From Octopus vulgaris (Eukaryota), in the NCBI GenBank assembly GCA_951406725.2, contig OX597814.1, forward strand, positions 76,322,001 through 76,386,000: DNA of 64,000 nt. Reading direction: 5' to 3'. Shown here in pieces: positions 28,880-57,899 of the stretch. The position numbers were made by a program, and so were the translations under genes. The stretch's first letter is position 1, and each line of letters starts with the position of its first letter. The notes beneath the pieces are model-generated. The model was not told the origin of the DNA and searched no databases. It saw only the letters and a list, made by a program, of their open reading frames with translations.

Positions 28880-31800
28880 TGGCCCTTTGATGTCTCTGAT
28901 GCCACAAAGATATCATCATAAAACCAGCCAACAAGGGTGAAGCCATGGTGGTGTGGTGCACAGACCTTTACAAGGCTGAAGCTCTCTGCCAACTTCAAGA
29001 CACTTCCTTTTGCCCACTGCCCCACCCCACCCCATACCTAACAGCCAACAGATCGTACCCTCCACTATCCATGCCCTCATCTTATCCTCCTGTCTCCTTC
29101 CCACTGCCTCCAACCTTATTGTTTGCACTCCCACCCCAACATTCACTTCCTTCCCAAAATCCACCAGCCCAACAACCCTGGCTGCCCCATCATCTCTGCC
29201 TGTAACTGCCCCACTTACTTGATCTCTAAATACGAGGGACGTTCAATAAGTAATGCCTCTGACCCACTTGCAATTGTTAGATCTAACTGAAATTTTGCAT
29301 GTGCAATTATTTATATCTCTATAGATTAAGTGGCAAATTGTAGTTCCTGATTTACAGGTGTTTGAACTGAGTCAAGTGTGAAATGGAGCATGTTGAGTGT
29401 CGAGCAGTGATGCGGTTTTTGTATTTGAAAGGACGTACACCACAGGAGACTTTTGATGAAATGAAAGTAACTTATGGTGATGATGCCCCATCATATGACC
29501 TTGTAATTCAAACATGGTCGGAACTCTGTGGAAACAGCTCCCAGATCTGGTCACCCCCTTCTGCCATTGATGAGGCATCTGTCTGTCAAGTTGAGGCTGC
29601 CATTTTGGAAGATCGATGCATAACTATTCGCCAAATAGCCCATGAGGTCAAGATTAGTACCGGGTCTGTGGAAACTATCATTCATGACCATTTGCATATG
29701 CAAAAGGTGTCTGCCAGATGGATTCCCAGGTTGCTCACACCTTTCCAGAAGCAAGAACGCATCGAGTGCTCGAGGATGAATTTGGAGATGTGCCAAGTAG
29801 ATGAGTCAAAATTTTTCAAAAGACTGATCACACAGGATGAAACCTGGGTCCATCATTATGATTCAGAGACCAAAGCCCAGTCAATGCAGTGGAAGCACTG
29901 TGACTCACCTCCTCCAAAGAAGGTAAGAGTGCAGCTCTCCGCTGGCAAGGTCATGCTCTGGGACCAGGACGGAGTAGTGATGACAGATTTCCTGGCAAAG
30001 GGTACCACAATTACAGGAGCCTATTATGCTTCACTTTTGAGGAAATTAAGAGAAGTTATCAAAATCAAGAGGTGGGGCAAGATCAGCAAAGGCATCCTCC
30101 TCCTGCAGGACAACGCTACGGTCCACAACTCGCGTGTCGCCAGATCAGAAGCACAGGCGTGCTGCTATGAACTCCTCCCCCATCCCCCTACGCTCCTGAC
30201 CTTGCACCCTCTGATTTTCACCTCTTCCCAGCCATGAAGTTGTTTTTGAAAGGAAAGCATTTCACAGATGATGCAGCCTTGATTTCTAAAGTCATGTCGT
30301 GGCTGGAGGGCCAAGCTGGGGTCTTCTACAAAAACGGTCTCCAGCGCTGCATCAAACGATGGGAGAAATGCGTAACTCTGGGTGGTTCCTATGTAGAAAA
30401 AGACTGATAACTGTGCCAAGTTTTGTTGCTCTACTGCTATGGGAAGTGGGTCAGGGGCATTACTTATTGAACGCCCCTCGTAACTTGAGCATGCCCTTGT
30501 CTCCTAGTGGCTTCCATTCCGTCCCACATCTATGACACTAACCATGTTCTCCATCTCTTTGACTCTTTCTCCTTCCCTTCTGGACCTTCTAAACTCCTCT
30601 TCACTCTTAATATCATGAGTCTATATATGGTGATCCCACACAACGAAGGACTTCTTGCTCTCAAACATTTTCTAGACCTTCAACCCAACTCCCAACTTGA
30701 CACTTCCATACTTCTTCATCTGGTTGAACTTGCTCTCTCTCTCAACTGCTTCTCGTTCACAGGGGATTATAACCAACATGTCTCAGGAGTAGCCATGGGA
30801 ACAAGAATGGGCCCCAACTATGTGAACCTGTTTGTTGGCTATGTTGAGGCCCAAATATTCTCACAATTCACTGGTCCCCCCTCCTGAACTAAATGGTCAT
30901 TATACTGATGATTGTATTGGTGCGACCTCACTCTCCCATGAACAACTAGATTCCTTCCTTTCTTTTGTCCAATCTTCCTTCCTGCTCTTGAATTCTCCTG
31001 CACTATTTTCAACACTTCCATCACATTTCTCAACATTTCTATCAACATACACCAGTCTGCTCTCACTACCTCCATCCACTACAAACACACCAACAAACAC
31101 TCCTACCTTAACTTCTCTTCCCACCCTACCCACACCAAGCTCTCCATCCCCCTACTCTTAATTCCTCCATCTGCACAGTGACAACCATGACTTTGAGACT
31201 CAGTCTCAACTCATGGCTCACCACTCCATCTTTTGTGGATATCCCCTCACTACTATCCACACAGCCCTTGCCAGAGCATATTCCATGAGCTGTGCCTCTG
31301 CTTCCTCTCCCCACACCTGCCCTGCCATTGCTGTCTCCTGTTTCCCTTACATGACACCACTCTACCCTGCCCTGCCTCCAATGCACCATTCTCCGAGCCT
31401 TCCGGCAACTCCAGTCCAACTCCTCCACCTCGCACATCTTCTCCAACCTAGCCCTTCCCTCTTTCAAATGAACCCACAACCTGCATGACCTCCTGGTCTA
31501 CAGTTTCTTCCCTAACCCCACCTCCCAACCTAGCTCATTCCCCTGCTCCTGCTCCTGCTACTGCATTTACCCCTACCTCTCCAACACCACCATCCTCACA
31601 GACACCCATCATCGTCCCTATCATATCACTGACTTACCTGCTTCTAGCAACATCATTTATTGCATCTCCTGCTCTTTCTGCCCTTCTCTGTACATCAGTC
31701 GAATGGGACACCGCTTGGCTGACTGGTTTGCAGAGCACTTCCGAGACATCAGACTCAGAAATGACACCCTAGTCTTGTGCCATTTCCGTTTTACTGGTCA

Positions 31801-32270
31801 TTCACTACAACATTTGTCTGCATTCAGATTGTCTTTGCACGGGCCATCCAGACTCCTGCCTTTGCTGGGAACAAAAGTTAATCTTCTCTCTTTGCTCCAC
31901 GTGGGTCCAACTCCCCTCCTCTCCTCTCTTCACTCCTACCCACCTTCTCTCTTCATTGATACCCCCTCCACCCGCCCACCCCATCCCCACTACATCACCC
32001 AACCCAACTCCACACACACTAGCACTGACCACTTCTCACATACACACATGTGCACACCTTCATTTTGGGATCACCAATACTTTATTATTGCCCCTTCTTT
32101 CTACCTCTCCTGTCAAACCTTTTTTTTCCAACCAGTCGCCACGCTTCACTGTTAAATCCACAAGTTTTTCTATTCTCACTCTGTTTATTTTCTCTTATTT
32201 CTTTATCTTGGTGAGCATAGGCTCACAATGTAAAAGATCTTCTCACGTGTTTCAGTATTGGAAGATTACA
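28880..32270 (+). mobile_element. Decayed C-rich Penelope-like element (Neptune-type RT + GIY-YIG), interrupted by a mariner
   Basis: PKIHQPNNPG..PII before the mariner. After it: SLYMVIPHNEGL, GVAMGTRMGPNYVNLF, YTDDCIG and NIIYCISCSFC..YI..GHRLADWFAEH. Confidence 0.9.
29233..30480 (+). mobile_element. Mariner (DD34D) transposon, near full length
   Basis: 37-bp TIRs with 2 mismatches; TA TSD on both sides. ORF 29383-30237 has WIPRLL, ITQDETWVHHYD and LLQDNA; a frameshift near 30185 precedes YAPDLAPSDFHLFP. Confidence 0.97.
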
Positions 32271-36298: not shown

Positions 36299-36438
36299 CT
36301 CTAAGTTATATGATGTATAAAAACATGTAATATACAAATAAATATCTGTAAATATAAAACCATTCGAATTTCTGAGTACCTCATTTCTTCTAATATAAAA
36401 TACCTGTACATCATCTCCAAACCTTCCAATACATATAT

Positions 36439-37891
36439 TTGGATGTACAAGACATCAGAATAATATCAGATCCACAAACAGAAGATACCAAAAATACAGA
36501 AAACATTGAAAAGAATGGAACAGAATCAGGCCCAAAACAGGCTTATACCAAACACACAGAAGACCTAACACAAATCTGCAAAATATGCAATACCAAAATA
36601 AATAAGACAGAATCACATCTTCAACAGGGGAATACCAGAAGCATGGAAGATCTATTCACAGAAACCTGTAGTAAGTTGAATTCACTTCTTTCAAAAATTG
36701 ATACAATCTTTGCTTTAACAATAAATACGATCCAAACACAAAATTATTCTCTCTAAAAATAATCAAGCAAACACAACTGACAACACAAATCTTTTGGTGG
36801 GACCACCCCAATCACAAAGGAAAACAAATGACGAAGGAACAAAAACTGACACAAACCAAGAAAAACCTTCAAAACCCCAAGACTGGAACAAACTTCTAAA
36901 CCAACATAAACATGCTTATTGGAAAAGCATACGCTGTAAGAACATAGCCAACATATACCAAAACTGGCGGGACATGAAGAACCCAATACTCCCTAGAAAA
37001 TTCCTTATCAAAGAAATAAAGGGTGAAACACTAGAAGAAACAACAATACGTGCAAACCTAACCCATTGCTGACTAGAAACAGAAATTTCCCTTCTACAAA
37101 CATGAAACTCACACCAGGAAGATAAGATTAAAACAATTGATACCGTCATAATGGCCGAAATAACAGAAAGGAACAATAACCAAAACAAAGAAAAACTACA
37201 ACAATTATGGAAAGAGGATATCAAACGAGAGGAGGAAAGATCTGGAATTATGTGGACCAAACAACAGGAGTGGCTTTTAAACTACGAAAAGAACTATGGG
37301 GAAAAATCAATTATGAAGACAAAAAAACTACCAAAACAGATGAAAAGATACAACAAACCAACATCACGAAAATATTGGACTCCAAGCCATCCCAATAAGC
37401 CCTACCAAACACAAACCAAAATCCCACTCCTTACACTGCCGAACCCCCAATAAACAGACACACAAAATATGAAAGACGACCTTCAACCCAAAACCCCACA
37501 AAGACAAGCACACAAGCAGCAAGACGAGCATGATACATACAACCAACAACCTATAACACTTGGAGAGAACAAACAGAATATGATCAACCACCAACACATA
37601 ATACTGGATATCCTAAATGGACACACACACATGGAACAATAAACAAGTGGATAGAAATCAACACACAACCTACAACAAACATCGAGGAAATCCAAACCAT
37701 ACAAACACCAACCCCATGCAACCCCACAAATTTACAAGATGGATAAAAAACAACCCCCACTATCAATACAATACAAACACAAAACAAAACCATCCACCTA
37801 CCCACAAAGAAATCTGAACCCCAGTAATAGAAATTGGCTGAACAAAGATGGGAAGAAAACAACTACCAAAGACAAAACAACACATACAGAC

Positions 37892-37964
<73 letters not shown>

Positions 37965-38095
37965 AAGAAAACCTAAGACCTGAAAATGGAATTTGGAGAT
38001 GCAACAGCACAAACCCATTTTTAGGGAAAGGATACTTTAACCATACTCCAGACCCAATACACCAAAAATTCCAAATGAACACACAAAACACATAG
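36439..38095 (+). pseudogene. PLE A ORF1 (helical domain + N/T/Q/H-rich tail), disrupted; carries a (CTA)n insertion at ~37892-37964
   Basis: WNKLLNQHKHAYWKSI..IANIYQNW..PILPRKFLIKEIKGE aligns by eye with PLE B ORF1. Confidence 0.75.
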
Positions 38096-40325
38096 ACCCC
38101 AAAATAATAAACCTATCTAAAAGAGAACTTAATGAAAATGAAATGAACTTACTACTAAAAGGCCTCAAATTTACACCCACACCCACTCCAAATCTCATAG
38201 AACTAAAAACTGATATAGACAACTTCAGCCACCACCTCCGCCTTATGGAATTCTTTGAAAATAAAGAAACAGAAGATAACTCAATCATAAGAAAAAAATC
38301 CCATTTCACCCTTTACAAGGGAAGTGACAAACACCTTGATGCATACATAGAGACAATATCCAAATTCCCTCTCAACACATACAAATGCAATCAGAATCTC
38401 CACAGAGGAGAAAAACAAGCCCTACAAAAACTAAAAAATGACAAGTTGATCATTATAAAAGAAGCTGACAAAGGTGGAGCAATAGTTATTATGGATACTG
38501 ATTACTACAAAGAAAAGATACTGGAGTTGCTGAACAACCAGACATACTATGAAGAGGAACCAACACCACCGGAGAAAGCAACAATAAAAAAAATTAGAAC
38601 TTTAGTCAATGAATACCAGGACTCCTTTACAGATAAGGAGAAAGACTATGCAACTCAAGAACCAAAGATAGCAACTTTTATGGATTACCTAAAATTCATA
38701 AAAGCTCTGAAATACAGAGAGCCATAAAGGAACAGAGGAACCACCATATAAGAATACAAAGGCCTGGAGATCTCACAATGAGACCAATAGTGGCAGGACC
38801 CCAGGCGCCAACACAACAACTAAGCCACTTCATAAATGTACTTCTCAAACCTTTATGCCCACAGATACCAAGCTACATAAGGGATGACATAGACTTCCTC
38901 ACACACATTCCAAATACAGTCCCGAAAAACACCATACTTGCAAGCTTCGATGTCACAAACCTATACATGAACATACCACACACCCTAGGTCTAGAAGCAA
39001 TAAAACAATCGGTAGAAAAATACAAGGAACTCATAGACGAACGTTTCAAGACAGACTTTATCACCCAAGCCACCCAATTAATACTCAAAGAAAATACATC
39101 CTCATTCAACAAGACATACCGACAGATAAAGGGCATGGCTATGGGTACAAAATTCGCACCTTCATATGCCAACCTGGTGATGGTTTTCCTGGAGAACAAA
39201 CTATACGATGACATATAGGGAAAGTCTTTGAACACAACTTCAGAGAAGACATCAAGAAAAAGAGGAAACGCTACCTCGATGACTGCTTTATCTTTTGGAA
39301 CATATCAGAAGAAGACCTACGAACATTCCACAACATCCTCAACACGCTGCACCTATCTACCAACTTCACAATAGATACCAGCCACAACAAACTTCCCTTC
39401 CTAGACATCAACATCAAAATACACAACTCCATCATCACAACAGACATCCACTGTAAAAAACTGACACACACCAATATTTAAATTTCCACTCCTGCCACCC
39501 ATCCCACATAAAAAGAAACATCCCATATAGTATGGCAAGATGAATATGTAGCATAGTAACTGATTCACAAACATGACTAATAAGACTAGATGAACTTAAA
39601 AACTTCCTACTAGAGCAAAAATACCCCTTTAAACTAATAGCAAATGGAATCACAAGAGCAATGAAACTAGACATCGCACAACTCAGGACACCCAAAACAA
39701 AAAACAAAGAAAACAATATCCCTTTCATAAACACACACAACCCTGGAGTTACCAACATGTTCCAAATCATACATTCAAACCTGCCAATAGTCTTGCAAAA
39801 CCCCAAAATGAAAAACATATTAAACAAATATAGCATAAAAAACAGTAGACAACAAGACAAAAACCTAAAGAAACATCTAACAAGAGTGAAATTCTCATCA
39901 GAAACTAAAACTGAATTCTTTGAAAAGAGTGCGGAGATGGTAGATGTGGGATCTGCAACAACCCCACCTACAAATACATAGAGGGAGACAAAGAAATTAA
40001 ATTTAAAAGTGGGCACATATTTAAAATAAATGCAGATATGAACTGCAAGACGCAGAACGTAATATACTGCATAACCTGCTCCACGTGCAAGGAGGATTAT
40101 ATAGGTGAAACTGGAAATTCTTTGTGCCAATGAGCCAGGATTCACCGACAGCATGTCCGACAGGAAGAACTGCGCAAGATACCACTGAGTAAACACCTAG
40201 ATACATGTGGAGAAGGAAAATTTAAGATCTTTCCCTTCTACAAATGTCCAAAGAATGACACCTCCTTCAGGAGGAATATGGAAAAACATTTCATAACTAA
40301 GTTCTCCCCCAAATTGAATTGCTGA
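38017..40325 (+). pseudogene. PLE A RT + GIY-YIG ORF, disrupted
   Basis: KIINLS, KGLKFTP, EADKGG, RPIVAGP, SFDVTNLY, GMAMGT, RYLDDCF, CGDGRCGIC linker, NVIYCITCSTC..YIGETG, FKIFPF. Confidence 0.93.
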
Positions 40326-40743
40326 AAATATCTCTATAATAAGCTGTACCAGATGAAGGACCAAATTTGTTAAGTAAACTGTATTAAACACACACACAGA
40401 GTTCTATACATATGTTTTGATTTTTGAAAATACAACATTGAACAAAGGATATTCTAATATTTCAATGAAACCATTTCACTTTAATTTGTGGAACCAGTTG
40501 CTCCTGTATGATAAAACTTAATATTTATTTAACTGTCAATCAGTGAGATATTAGACAAATCAATTGAAGATCAGACAACAGACTCAGTAGTTGTCAGTTT
40601 GTATTCTGTCATCTGTAACTTCAACACAAGAAAGTCTCTTTTTCAAGTATGGACCTTATGAAATTTTGCTCATCATACATTGAAGGACAAATCTTTCAAG
40701 TTACAATTTAACATAGTTACAATTTAACATAGTGTAGCATTTA

Positions 40744-40815
<72 letters not shown>

Positions 40816-41145
40816 GTATAAATATCAACACAATTATTTCTTCCCTTTTATTTTTCTTCTTCTTCTTCTTCTTCTTCTTCTTCTTCTTCTTCTTCTTCTT
40901 CTTCTTCTTCTCCTTTCTTCCCTTCTCCAAACTCACAGACACCCCCCACACACACACCTCCACAAAACAATAATAAAAAAAATTCTTCTCTAAAACCCCA
41001 AAACCATTTGACTATCCCTCATTAAACACACACACATACACACTCTCTCACAATGGAAATATAATTTATGGTCTACCTTCTTATGTCCCTCCCCACCACT
41101 ACACACTCAATAACACTATAAAATGGTCAAAACTCTTTACACAGG

Positions 41146-41207
41146 AACTTAGTTCGATTTGAAAACCCCACTAGAATGGGAGAAAACGCTAATACATGAT
41201 CTAAGTT
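41146..41207 (+). ncRNA. Minimal type I hammerhead ribozyme (U3:A8 variant) in PLE A pLTR
   Basis: Stem I AACTTAG/CTAAGTT with a bulged inner part; core TTGAAAA (41159-65); stem II CCCA/TGGG; GAAA (41182-85); near-palindromic A-ACGC-T; predicted cut after A41191. Confidence 0.7.
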
Positions 41208-41291
41208 ATATGATGTATAAAAACATGTAATATTCAAATAAATATCTGTAAATATAAAACCATCCAAATTTCTGAGTACCTCATTTCTTCT

Positions 41292-41325
<34 letters not shown>

Positions 41326-52021: not shown

Positions 52022-53812
52022 TATATATAGATAAGAAAGTTGGTTTGTGAAAGCACGTGGTTGAATATATAGAAAATAGTAAAAAGTGAAAAAGCTACAG
52101 AAGGCTTAAAGGTTAAAAAATATATATTTTGAGTCAATATGTCTGAAGAATATTAAAAATTTTTTTCTTACAATGACATAGTTTAGAAGAAAGACCTGTT
52201 TCGCGTTTAGCTTTTCAAATTTCTTACATTATGTTTATGTTGAACAGAGTTTTCGTTATGTTTATGTTTAAAAGAGTTCTAAATAAGGGGAGGTAATGAG
52301 TGATTTCTTCCGGTGTAAGGGAGATAATCGCTTAAAATTTTTTTCCTTTCCCTTGGTGTGAATTTCTCTGTGTCAGTATGTTGGTATGGTTAAGTCTGGG
52401 CTTGTACTTTTCAATGAAGAATGTTTCCTTGTTTAGTCTAATTTGTGTTGATGATCTGATAACACATTGGTAAAATGGAAAGATTAAAAATTGTGGTAGT
52501 AGTTACTTTGCACATTTCTCAATGTGCTCACTAAAAGGTATCATTCTGTATTCTGGGAATGCAATCTGTTGTCGATGCAGTGCGCATCTACATCTGAGTG
52601 ATAGTCCCGTGAATCCCATGTAGTCTTGGTGGCAGCCTGAGCATTTTATGACATAAATTATGTTTTCAGAGGCACAAGTAAAGTTAGATTTGATCTTGAA
52701 TTTCTATCCCTCTTTAAAGAGGAATTCTGATCCTTCTTGCAGGTTTGGACATGTTGCCCAGTTCGATCTACCACATTTTTTTACTTTTGCATCCGTAATT
52801 TCAGAAAACAATTTTGCCTTTGTGAGAATCTTTTTAAGTGATTTAGGTTGTTTGTAGCTTTTAATGATTTGGTGTATGTTTAGAATTTCCTTTAATTTGG
52901 GGTCCTTATGAAGTATTGGTAAATTCTGGGTGATGATGGTGAAGGCTTCTTTGTTTCTGGGGTTGTATGTAGATATGTAAGGTAGTATTTTCGGGGAAGG
53001 TGTGTTGTTGTGTTGAACTTTTCTTAAAGTTTCTATGTTGATTTCTGTTGCACGTCTGATCCCATCCTCTATGAGTTGAGCTGGGTAATGTCTGTCAATT
53101 AGGGTGTTTTTGAGTTCTTGCAGTCTAAAGTTCCTGGTATTTTGTTCTGACACTATTGTGCATATCCTTCTTGCAAGGTTGAAGAGGATGTTTGTTTTAG
53201 TGTGTCTTGGGTGGCATGAATTAAAAAGAAGGTATTATTTGGCGTCTGTGGCTTTGTAAAAAATGTCTGTTTCTATTTTAAGGTTAATTTTTTTAATTAG
53301 TATATCCAAGAACAGGAGCTCCTTTTGGTTGTATTCCATTGTGAATTGTATATTTGGGTTTATGCTGTTCAATAGGTTTTTAAATTTTAGGAGTTTATCT
53401 GTGTTTTCATTCCAGAGTATAAAACAATCGTCTAAGAATCGTTTCCAATTCTCTTTTATGTATTGAGAAAGGGGGTTTCTAAAGATTGATAAAGATTCCT
53501 GGTAAATGATTATTTCCATGTAGCCCATTGTTAGGTTCGCAATGACTGGTGCTGCCCTTGTACCCATAGCAATTCCGGATTTTTGACGGTAAAATGTATT
53601 GTCAAACATGAAGTGGTTATTATGTAGGATGAATTCAATTGATTTAGTAATGAATTCTTTACTGATCCTTTTTGGTATTTCTTCCGGAAATTGGTCCAGC
53701 CAGAACTGTATTGCCTCTAGTCCATAATTATGAGGTATACTGGTATATAAGTTAACTACATCAAATGAAACCAGGATTGTTTCTTCCTTGGCTTTTTTTG
53801 GAAGGTGGTTTA
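52022..53812 (-). mobile_element. Inverted 5'-truncated copy of PLE B
   Basis: Near-identical reverse complement of 56105-57850 plus further pLTR sequence. Confidence 0.97.
52187..52225 (-). ncRNA. Minimal hammerhead ribozyme (U3:A8 variant) in inverted PLE B copy
   Basis: Minus strand: AAGAAA-T-TTGAAAA-GC-TAAAC-GC-GAAA-C-AG-GTC-TTTCTT. Confidence 0.75.
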
Positions 53813-53945
53813 TTGACTCAAATATATATTTTTTAACCTTTAAGCCTTCTGTAGTTTTTTCACTTTTTACTATTTTCTATATATTCAACCACGTGCTTTC
53901 ACAAACCAACTTTCTTATCTATATATTAAACATGTGAGACCGAAA

Positions 53946-55289
53946 ATGCTACAGAAGACCAACACCTCGGATAAAACTACAAATGAGGACATTCTCAAAG
54001 AACTGAAAAGTATTAATACACAGCTCATTACCCTGAACAACAAAATCGAGGAATCAAACCTACTCGCCCGGGAAAGTAAAAGCAGTGAAGATACAACTCG
54101 CTACACTGACCAGGTTAGTAAGGTTTGGAACTGTTATACACAACACTAAATTCAATTTTCATCAACAAATCCGAAAATAAAAAACACACACCAAATGAAA
54201 CACAGTAGGACATCATACGCACCCAAATTAACCCAGTAAAAAGAAAAATTGGAAACATTTGGAATACAAACCTGCACAATAGAAAACTCGCCTTCTGGAA
54301 CATGATAAAAAATTCCAACAAAGCAGATATATACGAGGGATGGATGAACTCAACACCAATTATCCTCCCACGCAAATTCCAGATAAAATTAATTCCTAAC
54401 GAGCCTGACGGACAGAGAACTATTAGGGAAAAGTCAGCTCTGTTCAATTTAAGATCAGAAATAGAGCTTCTAAGACTAAGGGCCTCCACAAATGAGGAAA
54501 AATTTAAAAGCATCGACGAGGAGATGCACAATATAATACAAAAACATACCGAGGGACAACCCCTCGAAAATACATTAGATCATTGGAAGGATACCTGTGA
54601 AAAAAAAGAGAGAAATTCTCTCCTGCGCTGGGAGAAAAACATCGATTTCTTCCAAAAATATAGTTCAACTTTCAAAAATGAATTGGGTACAAATAATCCC
54701 TTCCTTAAGAAAATTACCAAAAATAAAAAAGAAAAACCAAACAACCCCCAACTATCCTCCATACACTAAAAACAGAAATCACCCACAACCAACCTTTGCA
54801 AACCACGCAAGACCTAACAGGGAACTAGCTGACAGACGACGCGTCTATGAAATAAATTACACCAAAAACAGAACACACCAACAACATCCTAATACCAGAC
54901 CCAACCACCATACACCACAAAACGACACTAGAATAAGAAATACACCACACACAAGTCGCTACTACCCCATGAACCAAAATTACTGGTCCCCACTGAACAC
55001 TAGACAAACGCAAAAAAACACTATGTCAAGCAACATCCCACATACAAGCAGTTCGAAACAAAAATATTTCACATACAGAAATTTTACACACACCACAAAC
55101 AAAAACAACCATAGATTCCCCCACACACACAACGATCGGGGGCAACAATACCACCATTCCCCCGACCCAATATCACACAACCTCACAGACAACTCATACA
55201 AACAAAATTACACCCAACATTTTTTAGCCAGGGACCAGAGACACCAGGACACAGGCTGGAACCTAGTAATAAGGAAAAACCGAAGATAA
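53946..55289 (+). pseudogene. PLE B ORF1 (coiled-coil-like + helical domain + low-complexity tail), disrupted
   Basis: ILKELKSINTQLITLNNKIEE heptads; WNTNLHNRKLAFWNMIKN..ADIYEGW..PIILPRKFQIKLIPNE. Confidence 0.78.
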
Positions 55290-57584
55290 TCAATCTTTCA
55301 ACCAAACCTCTTTCTAACATAAAAATTGACATCCTCTCAAAAGGGCTCAAATTTACACCACCTCCACGCAGAGCCAACCTAAATGAAATCAAGGATAATA
55401 TAACAGAATTTTGCAGAAAATTAAGACTAGCAGAAGCATCAACCAGTTTCAATACTGAAGATGAATCACTAGTCAAGAACAAAAGTGAACACATCCCACA
55501 CAGAGGAAGAAATAAAGATCTTGACGAATTCTGTAACCACATTGAGAACTTTCTCTACCATACTATACATAAACAGAAAGTTAACTCAAATTTTAACACT
55601 ACACAATGGAAGGAACTGATAGAACTTCAAAATGATGAGGATATAACCATTAAGGAAGCAGACAAGGGAAATGCAGTTGTAATAATGGATACATCATACT
55701 ATAGAAATCTTGTAATTTCCTTGCTTGATGACGACCTACATTATGAAAAAATTACCAACTACACCCCACAAAAAATAATGAAAACTCTATCTTCACTAAT
55801 TAAAACCCATGAAAAGGAACTAACAACCAAAGAGATTGACTTTCTAACAAACTTTAAATGCAAACCTAGCCTTTTCTATGGTCTGCCAAAAATTCATAAA
55901 AGCCAAATTATAAATGAAACCATTAAAAAATCACCAAAGACATACATACACACACCTAACCCGGGGGACCTAAAACTACGACCCATTGTAGCTGGCCCAA
56001 CCTGTGAAACACACAGACTAAGTCTATTTATGGATTTATGGACATCCTCCTGAAACCCTTCCATAAACATATCGATAGCCATATCAGAGATGACTTAGAT
56101 ATGTTAAACCACCTTCCAAAAAAAGCCAAGGAAGAAACAATCCTGGTTTCATTTGATGTAGTTAACTTATATACCAGTATACCTCATAATTATGGACTAG
56201 AGGCAATACAGTTCTGGCTGGACCAATTTCCGGAAGAAATACCAAAAAGGATCAGTAAAGAATTCATTACTAAATCAATTGAATTCATCCTACATAATAA
56301 CCACTTCATGTTTGACAATACATTTTACCGTCAAAAATCCGGAATTGCTATGGGTACAAGGGCAGCACCAGTCATTGCGAACCTAACAATGGGCTACATG
56401 GAAATAATCATTTACCAGGAATCTTTATCAATCTTTGGAAACCCCTTTCTCAATACATAAAAGAGAATTGGAAACGATTCTTAGACGATTGTTTTATACT
56501 CTGGAATGAAAACACAGATAAACTCCTAAAATTTAAAAACCTATTGAACAGCATAAACCCAAATATACAATTCACAATGGAATACAACCAAAAGGAGCTC
56601 CCGTTCTTGGATATACTAATTAAAAAAATTAACCTTAAAATAGAAACAGACATTTTTTACAAAGCCACAGACGCCAAATAATACCTTCTTTTTAATTCAT
56701 GCCACCCAAGACACACTAAAACAAACATCCTCTTCAACCTTGCAAGAAGGATATGCACAATAGTGTCAGAACAAAATACCAGGAACTTTAGACTGCAAGA
56801 ACTCAAAAACACCCTAATTGACAGACATTACCCAGCTCAACTCATAGAGGATGGGATCAGACGTGCAACAGAAATCAACATAGAAACTTTAAGAAAAGTT
56901 CAACACAACAACACACCTTCCCCGAAAATACTACCTTACATATCTACATACAACCCCAGAAACAAAGAAGCCTTCACCATCATCACCCAGAATTTACCAA
57001 TACTTCATAAGGACCCCAAATTAAAGGAAATTCTAAACATACACCAAATCATTAAAAGCTACAAACAACCTAAATCACTTAAAAAGATTCTCACAAAGGC
57101 AAAATTGTTTTCTGAAATTACGGATGCAAAAGTAAAAAAATGTGGTAGATCGAACTGGGCAACATGTCCAAACCTGCAAGAAGGATCAGAATTCCTCTTT
57201 AAAGAGGGACAGAAATTCAAGATCAAATCTAACTTTACTTGTGCCTCTGAAAACATAATTTATGTCATAAAATGCTCAGGCTGCCACCAAGACTACGTGG
57301 GATTCACGGGACTATCACTCAGATGTAGATGCGCACTGCATCGACAACAGATTGCATTCCCAGAATACAGAATGATACCTTTTAGTGAGCACATTGAGAA
57401 ATGTGCAAAGTAACTACTACCACAATTTTTAATCTTTCCATTTTACCAATGTGCTATCGGATCATCAACACAAATTAGACTAAACAAGGAAACATTCTTC
57501 ATTGAAAAGTACAAGCCCAGACTTAACCATACCAACATACTGACACAGAGAAATTCACACCAAGGGAAAGGAAAAAAATTTTAA
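55220..57584 (+). pseudogene. PLE B RT + GIY-YIG ORF, few disruptions
   Basis: KIINLS, KGLKFTP, EADKGN, FYGLPKIHK, RPIVAGP, SFDVVNLY, GIAMGT, RFLDDCF, NIIYVIKCSGCHQDYVG, FLIFPF. Confidence 0.95.
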
Positions 57585-57693
57585 GCAATTATCTCCCTTA
57601 CACCGGAAGAAATCACTCATTACCTCCCCTTATTTAGAACTCTTTTAAACATAAACATAACGAAAACTCTGTTCAACATAAACATAACGTCGT

Positions 57694-57732
57694 AAGAAAT
57701 TTGAAAAGCTAAACGCGAAACCAGTCTTTCTT
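57694..57732 (+). ncRNA. Minimal type I hammerhead ribozyme (U3:A8 variant) in PLE B pLTR
   Basis: AAGAAA-T-TTGAAAA-GC-TAAAC-GC-GAAA-C-CA-GTC-TTTCTT; GUC triplet, predicted cut after C57726. Confidence 0.75.
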
Positions 57733-57839
57733 CTAAACTATGTCATTGTAAGAAAAAAATTTTTAATATTCTTCAGACATATTGACTCAAATATATATTT
57801 TTTAACCTTTAAGCCTTCTGTAGTTTTTTCACTTTTTAC

Positions 57840-57899
<60 letters not shown>

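Follow-up and report, generated by a model that had tools for sequence, protein, structure and literature searches.

A conserved heptamer and a -1 frame offset between ORF1 and reverse transcriptase suggest likely programmed ribosomal frameshifting in Neptune-type Penelope-like elements of Octopus vulgaris

In a stretch of 64,000 nucleotides from Octopus vulgaris (GenBank assembly GCA_951406725.2, contig OX597814.1, positions 76,322,001 to 76,386,000 of the forward strand; hereafter the window), the first open reading frame (ORF1) of a Penelope-like element (PLE) overlaps a reverse transcriptase (RT) frame that is displaced from it by one nucleotide. This locus raises the question of whether such an offset is the decay of a broken copy or a conserved feature of the element. 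The element, PLE A (about 36300-41297), was broken: stops and frameshifts disrupted its ORF1, in which a helical core (about 36824-37330) was followed by a low-complexity tail, and the RT-endonuclease (EN) frame also carried several frameshifts and stops. Nevertheless, the ORF1 motif CCA TTT TTA GGG AAA was verified at 38015-38029, and the frame ending in TAG at 38095 was the true ORF1 frame, as L061, a natural copy of family A, mapped there with both the core and the end of its ORF1. The RT sequence IDPKIINLS (Pro at 38098) lay at -1 relative to ORF1, with a single TAA intervening. A second broken element, PLE B (about 53900-57850), had the same motif in the same phase, as the sequence-only reading of the window had claimed, but the claimed common distance of 20-25 codons before PKIINLS did not hold for both, since 27 codons separated the heptamer start from PKIINLS in PLE A and 20 in PLE B. 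The DNA around the two junctions, said to be unalignable, was so in a blastn comparison of the junctions, except for short alignable stretches at conserved RT motifs. The features of both elements are listed in Table 1.

Table 1. Coordinates of features of PLE A and PLE B, as positions in the window
Feature	Position	Strand	Remark
Putative slippery site of PLE A	38017..38024	+	A TTT TTA G in the window; T TTT TTA G in the family
TAA in RT frame, decayed CAA	38038..38040	+	TAA in 3/30 copies, CAA in 27/30 copies
ORF1 stop of PLE A	38093..38095	+	23 codons past the heptamer Leu; overlaps the Ile codon of HIDPK in the RT frame
ORF1 of PLE A	36394..38095 (start approximate)	+	tblastn with natural copy L061
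(CTA)n expansion within ORF1 tail of PLE A	37903..37965	+	only in the window copy; absent from 27 other copies compared
PLE A RT, C-x4-C-x2-C linker and GIY-YIG endonuclease, -1 frame	38017..40325	+	
Partial tandem repeat of the PLE A start (36300-36397)	41200..41297	+	self-blast 96% over 98 nt
Putative slippery site in PLE B (T TTT TTA G; phase as in PLE A)	55220..55227	+	T TTT TTA in 29/30 copies
ORF1 of PLE B, broken in the window	53946..55289	+	450 aa in intact copy L062
RT-EN frame of PLE B, broken in the window	55220..57584	+	784 codons long in L062, counted from the heptamer

Other copies of both families were compared with those in the window. Among 30 loci of family A (the top-scoring of 40; copy samples here are best matches and are biased toward similar copies), the heptamer read T TTT TTA in 23, A TTT TTA in two and had other single changes in five, while T TTT TTA was almost invariant in family B (Table 1). 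The intervening TAA, which had been suspected of being decay, was CAA in 27 of the family-A copies and is thus not fixed in the consensus; the A at the first heptamer position, one base off the ideal, was likewise decay of the window copy, being shared by only two copies. In the majority sequence of each family, ORF1 and the RT frame were both open and overlapped, with RT at -1. Natural copies showed the same organization: both frames were intact in L062 (family B), and L061 (family A) had an intact junction and 654 intact RT codons. Random decay of the junction was ruled out by these copy counts, and relatives in this genome and beyond retained both the motif and the frame offset, so the offset is a conserved feature, as had been proposed. 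Judged on its letters and those of its relatives, the window site is a decayed copy of a conserved, putatively slippery heptamer that would join ORF1 to the RT-EN frame at -1. Two single family-B copies (L093 and L044) had an indel uniting the ORF1 and RT frames, giving an open frame of 984 aa in L093; no amplified subfamily with fused ORF1-RT was seen among the family-B copies examined.

The junction had also been described as independently present in PLE A and PLE B. The identity between the two was about 33-37% in the ORF1 cores and 45% in RT, and their four-fold sites matched at 19/59 = 0.32, the same as the 0.32 expected at saturation. Because these sites are saturated, the retention of the junction in both families indicates selection. 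The description therefore stands for separate retention by selection and fails for independent origin, the junction having been inherited from a common ancestor. If amino acids alone were conserved, the probability of T-TTT-TTA would be about 0.017 per lineage (65/216 x 91/234 x 78/532, from codon usage). As a measure of chance, an in-phase U6N or UUUAAAC heptamer was found twice across 19,779 nt upstream of the 36 junctions considered below.

Based on a genome search with two ORF1 homologues, nine families were found in octopus, all with T TTT TTA G in ORF1 phase, 60-81 nt ahead of a PK[IV][IV]NLS motif. A tenth family (F9), which was young, intact and arranged in tandem arrays, read T TTT TTT AC, with no AG, and encoded Phe-Phe in place of Phe-Leu (FL). 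All ten had a separate ORF1 of 410-470 aa and an RT-GIY-YIG frame at -1 behind an in-phase heptamer, and intact natural two-ORF copies were present in five of them (L062, L112, L100, L107 and L193), some in tandem. RT identity among the seven measurable families was 43-69%, and four-fold sites matched between families at 0.22-0.48, close to saturation (0.32 expected). A sample anchored on the RT motif, and so independent of the junction, gave 1,133 matches, from which 50 loci (the first 30 places and 20 for variety) were taken. An in-phase site of T6A or T7A type was present in 34 of these 50 loci and was out of phase through indels in eight; the remaining eight, without a site, comprised three 5'-truncated and five mutated loci. 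An alignment of all families also revealed about 25 extra RT residues between YGLPKIHK and LRPI, which could serve as a lineage marker. At the 5' end of family F9 (L193:1063-1590), one sequencing-run contig showed clustered A>G differences, possibly ADAR hyper-editing.

Relatives outside the octopus were collected from metagenomes. A scan with the ORF1 alignment gave no matches. When the RT N-terminus was used for scanning, 79 loci were returned; 26 of them, with a long RT frame, entered the tree and the counts, and 53, whose RT frame was short or without the N-terminus, were excluded. At 14 of the 26 loci (two being tandem copies), RT was preceded by an ORF of 150 aa or more in the -1 arrangement; the heptamer was canonical and in phase at 13 of these and read G GTA AAC at the other. 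At four further loci of the same branch the heptamer was present and ORF1 was cut or broken. In the tree of these loci, all the metagenome loci with the -1 arrangement fell in one branch (support 99), whereas it occurred in none of the eight outgroup rows, six of which had a long in-frame N-terminus instead. The branch was divided into the lineage of the window elements, with U UUU UUA/G/U, and a sister branch, mostly with U UUA AAC. Across 36 junctions the heptamer was U UUU UUA in 20, U UUA AAC in 12, U UUU UUG in two, and U UUU UUU and G GUA AAC in one each.

The sister elements were also EN+, and their RT N-terminus was 25-31% identical. Their ORF1s were unmatched by the ORF1 profile, fell in two groups, read (H/R/V)LN at the heptamer and often stopped 0-1 codon after it. 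The metagenome contigs concerned (L208-L223, L228, L242 and L262) carried two unrelated ORF1 types of 460-750 aa. A hairpin 6-9 nt past U UUA AAC was kept in seven aligned loci, with two-sided changes in three of six pairs; a slippery heptamer with a hairpin 6-9 nt downstream is the classic anatomy of a -1 signal. In more distant PLEs (L260:1200-1251 and L271), an upstream ORF of about 400 aa overlapped RT at -1, with C CCA AA(A/C) as candidate heptamer.

The ORF1 protein was then considered. A profile search returned 981 clusters at E<=0.001 and 549 clusters (50% identity) at E<=1e-10. Fused ORF1-RT proteins were found neither among the best 150 ORF1 matches (longest 609 aa) nor among the best 120 RT matches (longest 803 aa, in a range searched to 1,348). 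From a homologue set of 151 proteins, the 85 of at least 330 aa were taken as full-length; FL occurred within the last 45 residues in 71 of them, compared to 4 and 4 in two preceding control windows, and no other feature of the ORF1 tail was conserved. FL was preceded in 0/71 homologues (background 0.19, P 4e-7) by a residue without a T-ending codon (Lys, Glu, Gln, Met or Trp), an absence that, as far as protein sequences can tell, is the trace of T-TTT-TT(A/G). The ORF1 model showed a confident helical bundle at residues ~81-240 (pLDDT 96-98) and a disordered tail rich in Asn, Gln, Arg and His. The fold search gave generic helical matches only (best Z 8.8, rmsd 6.7 over 123), zero Foldseek matches were obtained against PDB and viral models at E<=0.001, and Pfam gave one stray match among 72 members, with no Gag or other known family. 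A predicted three-copy ORF1 complex scored 0.02, which is evidence neither for nor against such an assembly. By analogy with Gag and LINE ORF1p, ORF1 is probably an RNA-binding structural protein. Some RT-EN relatives (P0188, P0206, P0214, P0251, P0275, P0282 and P0293) have protein entries assigned to bacterial symbionts of bivalves and probably represent host DNA in those assemblies.

At the junctions an X XXY YYZ heptamer lay in the phase of the upstream ORF, and the -1 frame was open from the heptamer into RT, mostly without AUG. An RT-frame ATG ahead of the conserved N-terminal motif was found at only six of the 36 junctions, and in family A the first one lay 15 codons beyond the Pro of this motif. 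Stops were absent from 528 and from 839 linker codons, counts that are partly circular as intact copies and open frames had been selected. These features suggest that the conserved heptamer is very likely a site of programmed -1 ribosomal frameshifting, in the manner of gag-pol, in Neptune-type PLEs. Most ribosomes would then make the ORF1 protein alone (410-470 aa), and a minority would slip by -1 on U UUU UUA, yielding a fused ORF1-RT-EN protein of about 1,200 aa, so that slippage would set a gag-pol-like ratio with ORF1 in excess over the fusion. U_UUU_UUA is the shift site of HIV, and U_UUA_AAC is among the most shifty heptamers, according to the available part of PMC5009743. The likeness to HIV-1 gag-pol lies in this site; the octopus elements are neither viruses nor LTR elements, unlike HIV-1 and the alphaviruses, and their ORF1 has no Gag fold.

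At -1 sites a 3' stem-loop or pseudoknot commonly, though not universally, lies 5-9 nt downstream; none was predicted for the lineage of the window elements, and one was present in part of the sister branch. Folding z-scores 3' of the heptamer ranged from -0.97 to +1.48 across nine families of the window's lineage, consensus base pairs there numbered zero, and a strong 3' stem was seen in only one of ten families. Semliki Forest virus, an alphavirus, offers a likeness in that it frameshifts without a functional 3' structure (PMC5009743, as far as its available text goes).

The position of the ORF1 stop was constrained. It lay exactly 10 codons after the Leu in 23/71 homologues, with unrelated tails (2 under a geometric null), and fewer than nine codons after it in 0/71 (28 under the null). 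On a quick protein tree the +10 stop changed eight times, and 19 of the 23 fell within a single long-branched clade; the 23 cases therefore cannot be counted as independent. Among the DNA junctions, the stop was at +10 in 11/36 (two in the sister branch), and TGG stood at +10 in eight more. Ribosomes accumulate about 10 codons before stops (PMC12458181, available part). Because 10 codons is the spacing of a queued ribosome behind a stop, it may be suggested, rather doubtfully, that a ribosome terminating at the ORF1 stop acts as the frameshift stimulator by stalling the next ribosome on the slippery site. On this model a large retrotransposon branch would use a structure-free, traffic-dependent -1 frameshift. 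A sequence element at +11 would explain the stop spacing as well. Family A, with its stop at +23, lies outside the queue model and would depend on the heptamer and its context.

The constrained stop, together with the RT-frame ATG that lies at +10/+11 in families F2, F6, F7 and F8 (8-11 codons ahead of the RT motif), could also be read as reinitiation after termination, or leaky scanning, close to the stop of ORF1, with the T run incidental. This is very unlikely: the overlapping RT codon was not ATG in any of the 11 junctions with a +10 stop, A.TGA occurred in only one of 36, the first RT-frame ATG lay inside conserved RT in 29/36 and one contig (L230) had no Met at all, and the phased heptamer would be left unexplained.

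Extremely unlikely, in turn, is a 3' splice acceptor at TTTTTTAG, with RT made from spliced RNA. The motif does end in YAG, its G, which an acceptor would need and slippage would not, was retained in 18/21 junctions of the window's lineage, and PLEs can contain introns (Fig. 1 legend of PMC8557442, the part available). Against this, an invariant AG with a pyrimidine tract, as at spliceosomal 3' splice sites, was not found: the young intact family F9 has no AG, L199 and L204 read T TTT TTG T, 13/15 sister-branch sites were not T6AG, the residue after FL could not begin with G in 19/71 homologues, and the 25 upstream nucleotides contained only 12-20% T in the ten families. Splicing would also leave the fixed ORF1 phase unexplained. 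In addition, contigs crossed the junction unspliced in 3/4 runs for each of two families, which counts weakly against splicing as the runs are presumed to be RNA and contigs drop rare forms.

Transcriptional slippage on the run of six or seven T, an extra U fusing the frames in part of the RNA, is scarcely credible. The T7 back-copies expected from it occurred in 0/139 junction records of families 0-8 (some loci duplicated), one extra T was seen in 2/50 RT-motif-anchored loci, and U UUA AAC has no long run. Equally hard to credit is that FL is a conserved ORF1 protein motif and the offset a mere compact overlap: FL is indeed all that is conserved in the tail, but TTT TTA was used although TTC and CTN are commoner in codon usage, F9 has Phe-Phe, the unrelated ORF1s of the sister branch have (H/R/V)LN, and RT would be left without a start. 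Programmed -1 frameshifting thus remains the preferred reading of the junction.

As regards classification, the elements had the RT motifs of PLEs (GxKF and DKG, seen in alignments as GLKFTPTP and KEADKG; Pfam RVT_1 6e-8) as well as a GIY-YIG at the C-terminus with an internal Cys pair, which was above the Pfam cut-off in L193 and whose motif was also present in the window copy. Tandem and pseudo-LTR structure and (TA)n neighbours were found; the tandem repeat at the end of PLE A adjoins (TA)n and is pseudo-LTR-like. No hammerhead family was found among 67 Rfam matches (microsatellite noise) at E<=1 in five loci, nor a simple hammerhead core pattern on the sense strand, searches that variants could escape. 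Immediately upstream of the PLE B ORF1, an inverted copy of the PLE B 3' half was seen at 52335-53840 (minus strand); such palindromic arrangements are typical of PLEs. The window holds a third Penelope-like RT as well, decayed and with about 30% identity to those of A and B (28900-32155), and what we take to be a mariner-like transposase (29371-30237).

A frameshift with a pseudoknot after ORF1 is reportedly a feature of Athena. Athena and other EN- PLEs share with the octopus elements a coiled-coil ORF1 ahead of RT; in contrast, they lack an endonuclease and are telomeric, whereas the octopus elements have GIY-YIG and a dispersed distribution, and in the window's lineage they show no pseudoknot. 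An ORF1 separable by a frameshift with a pseudoknot is described in the Fig. 1 legend of PMC8557442, the clade being unnamed in the text available, and Coprina-1_Alen has an ORF1 with a coil plus disorder (PMC13159263, available part). With Neptune-type EN+ PLEs, as described in the accessible part of PMC8557442, the octopus elements share the PLE-type RT, the C-x4-C-x2-C linker with a long spacer, the C-terminal GIY-YIG, (TA)n neighbours, and tandem and inverted copies. The CX2-5CxxC linker with its Neptune-like spacer (CGRPNCKTC and relatives) was compared by eye with rows of Fig. S2 of that paper. By linker and domain order the elements appear to be Neptune-type.

They differ from the Neptune-type elements, described as single-ORF, in that intact copies have two ORFs, a separate ORF1 and an RT-EN frame, with a -1 junction. 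Canonical EN+ PLEs are single-ORF in the parts available of PMC8557442, PMC6431247, PMC6515669, PMC11167929 and PMC13159263. Extra ORFs occur in some Neptune or Chlamys elements, with no frameshift reported in the texts at hand: PMC5408684 presents esterase ORFs of Neptune-like PLEs, and PMC12602865 an ORF1 of 420 nt in a killifish Neptune that does not overlap, neither with mention of a frameshift. No description of the -1 arrangement in EN+ PLEs was found in the open-access literature searched.

These results indicated that the junction is real, conserved and widespread, and is a new form of two known things, Penelope-like elements and -1 frameshifting. Endonuclease-bearing Penelope-like elements are the sister group of telomerase, and their standard single-ORF picture becomes gag-pol-like in one large branch, with an ORF1 family that is large and unannotated. 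Curators would overlook ORF1, take the junction for decay or “repair” it, and those who express such RTs would work with a truncated protein. The two-ORF, -1 arrangement outlasts the replacement of both ORF1 and the heptamer. Hundreds of putative natural -1 sites are thereby offered, many without 3' structure, which are suited to probing the stop-spacing idea.
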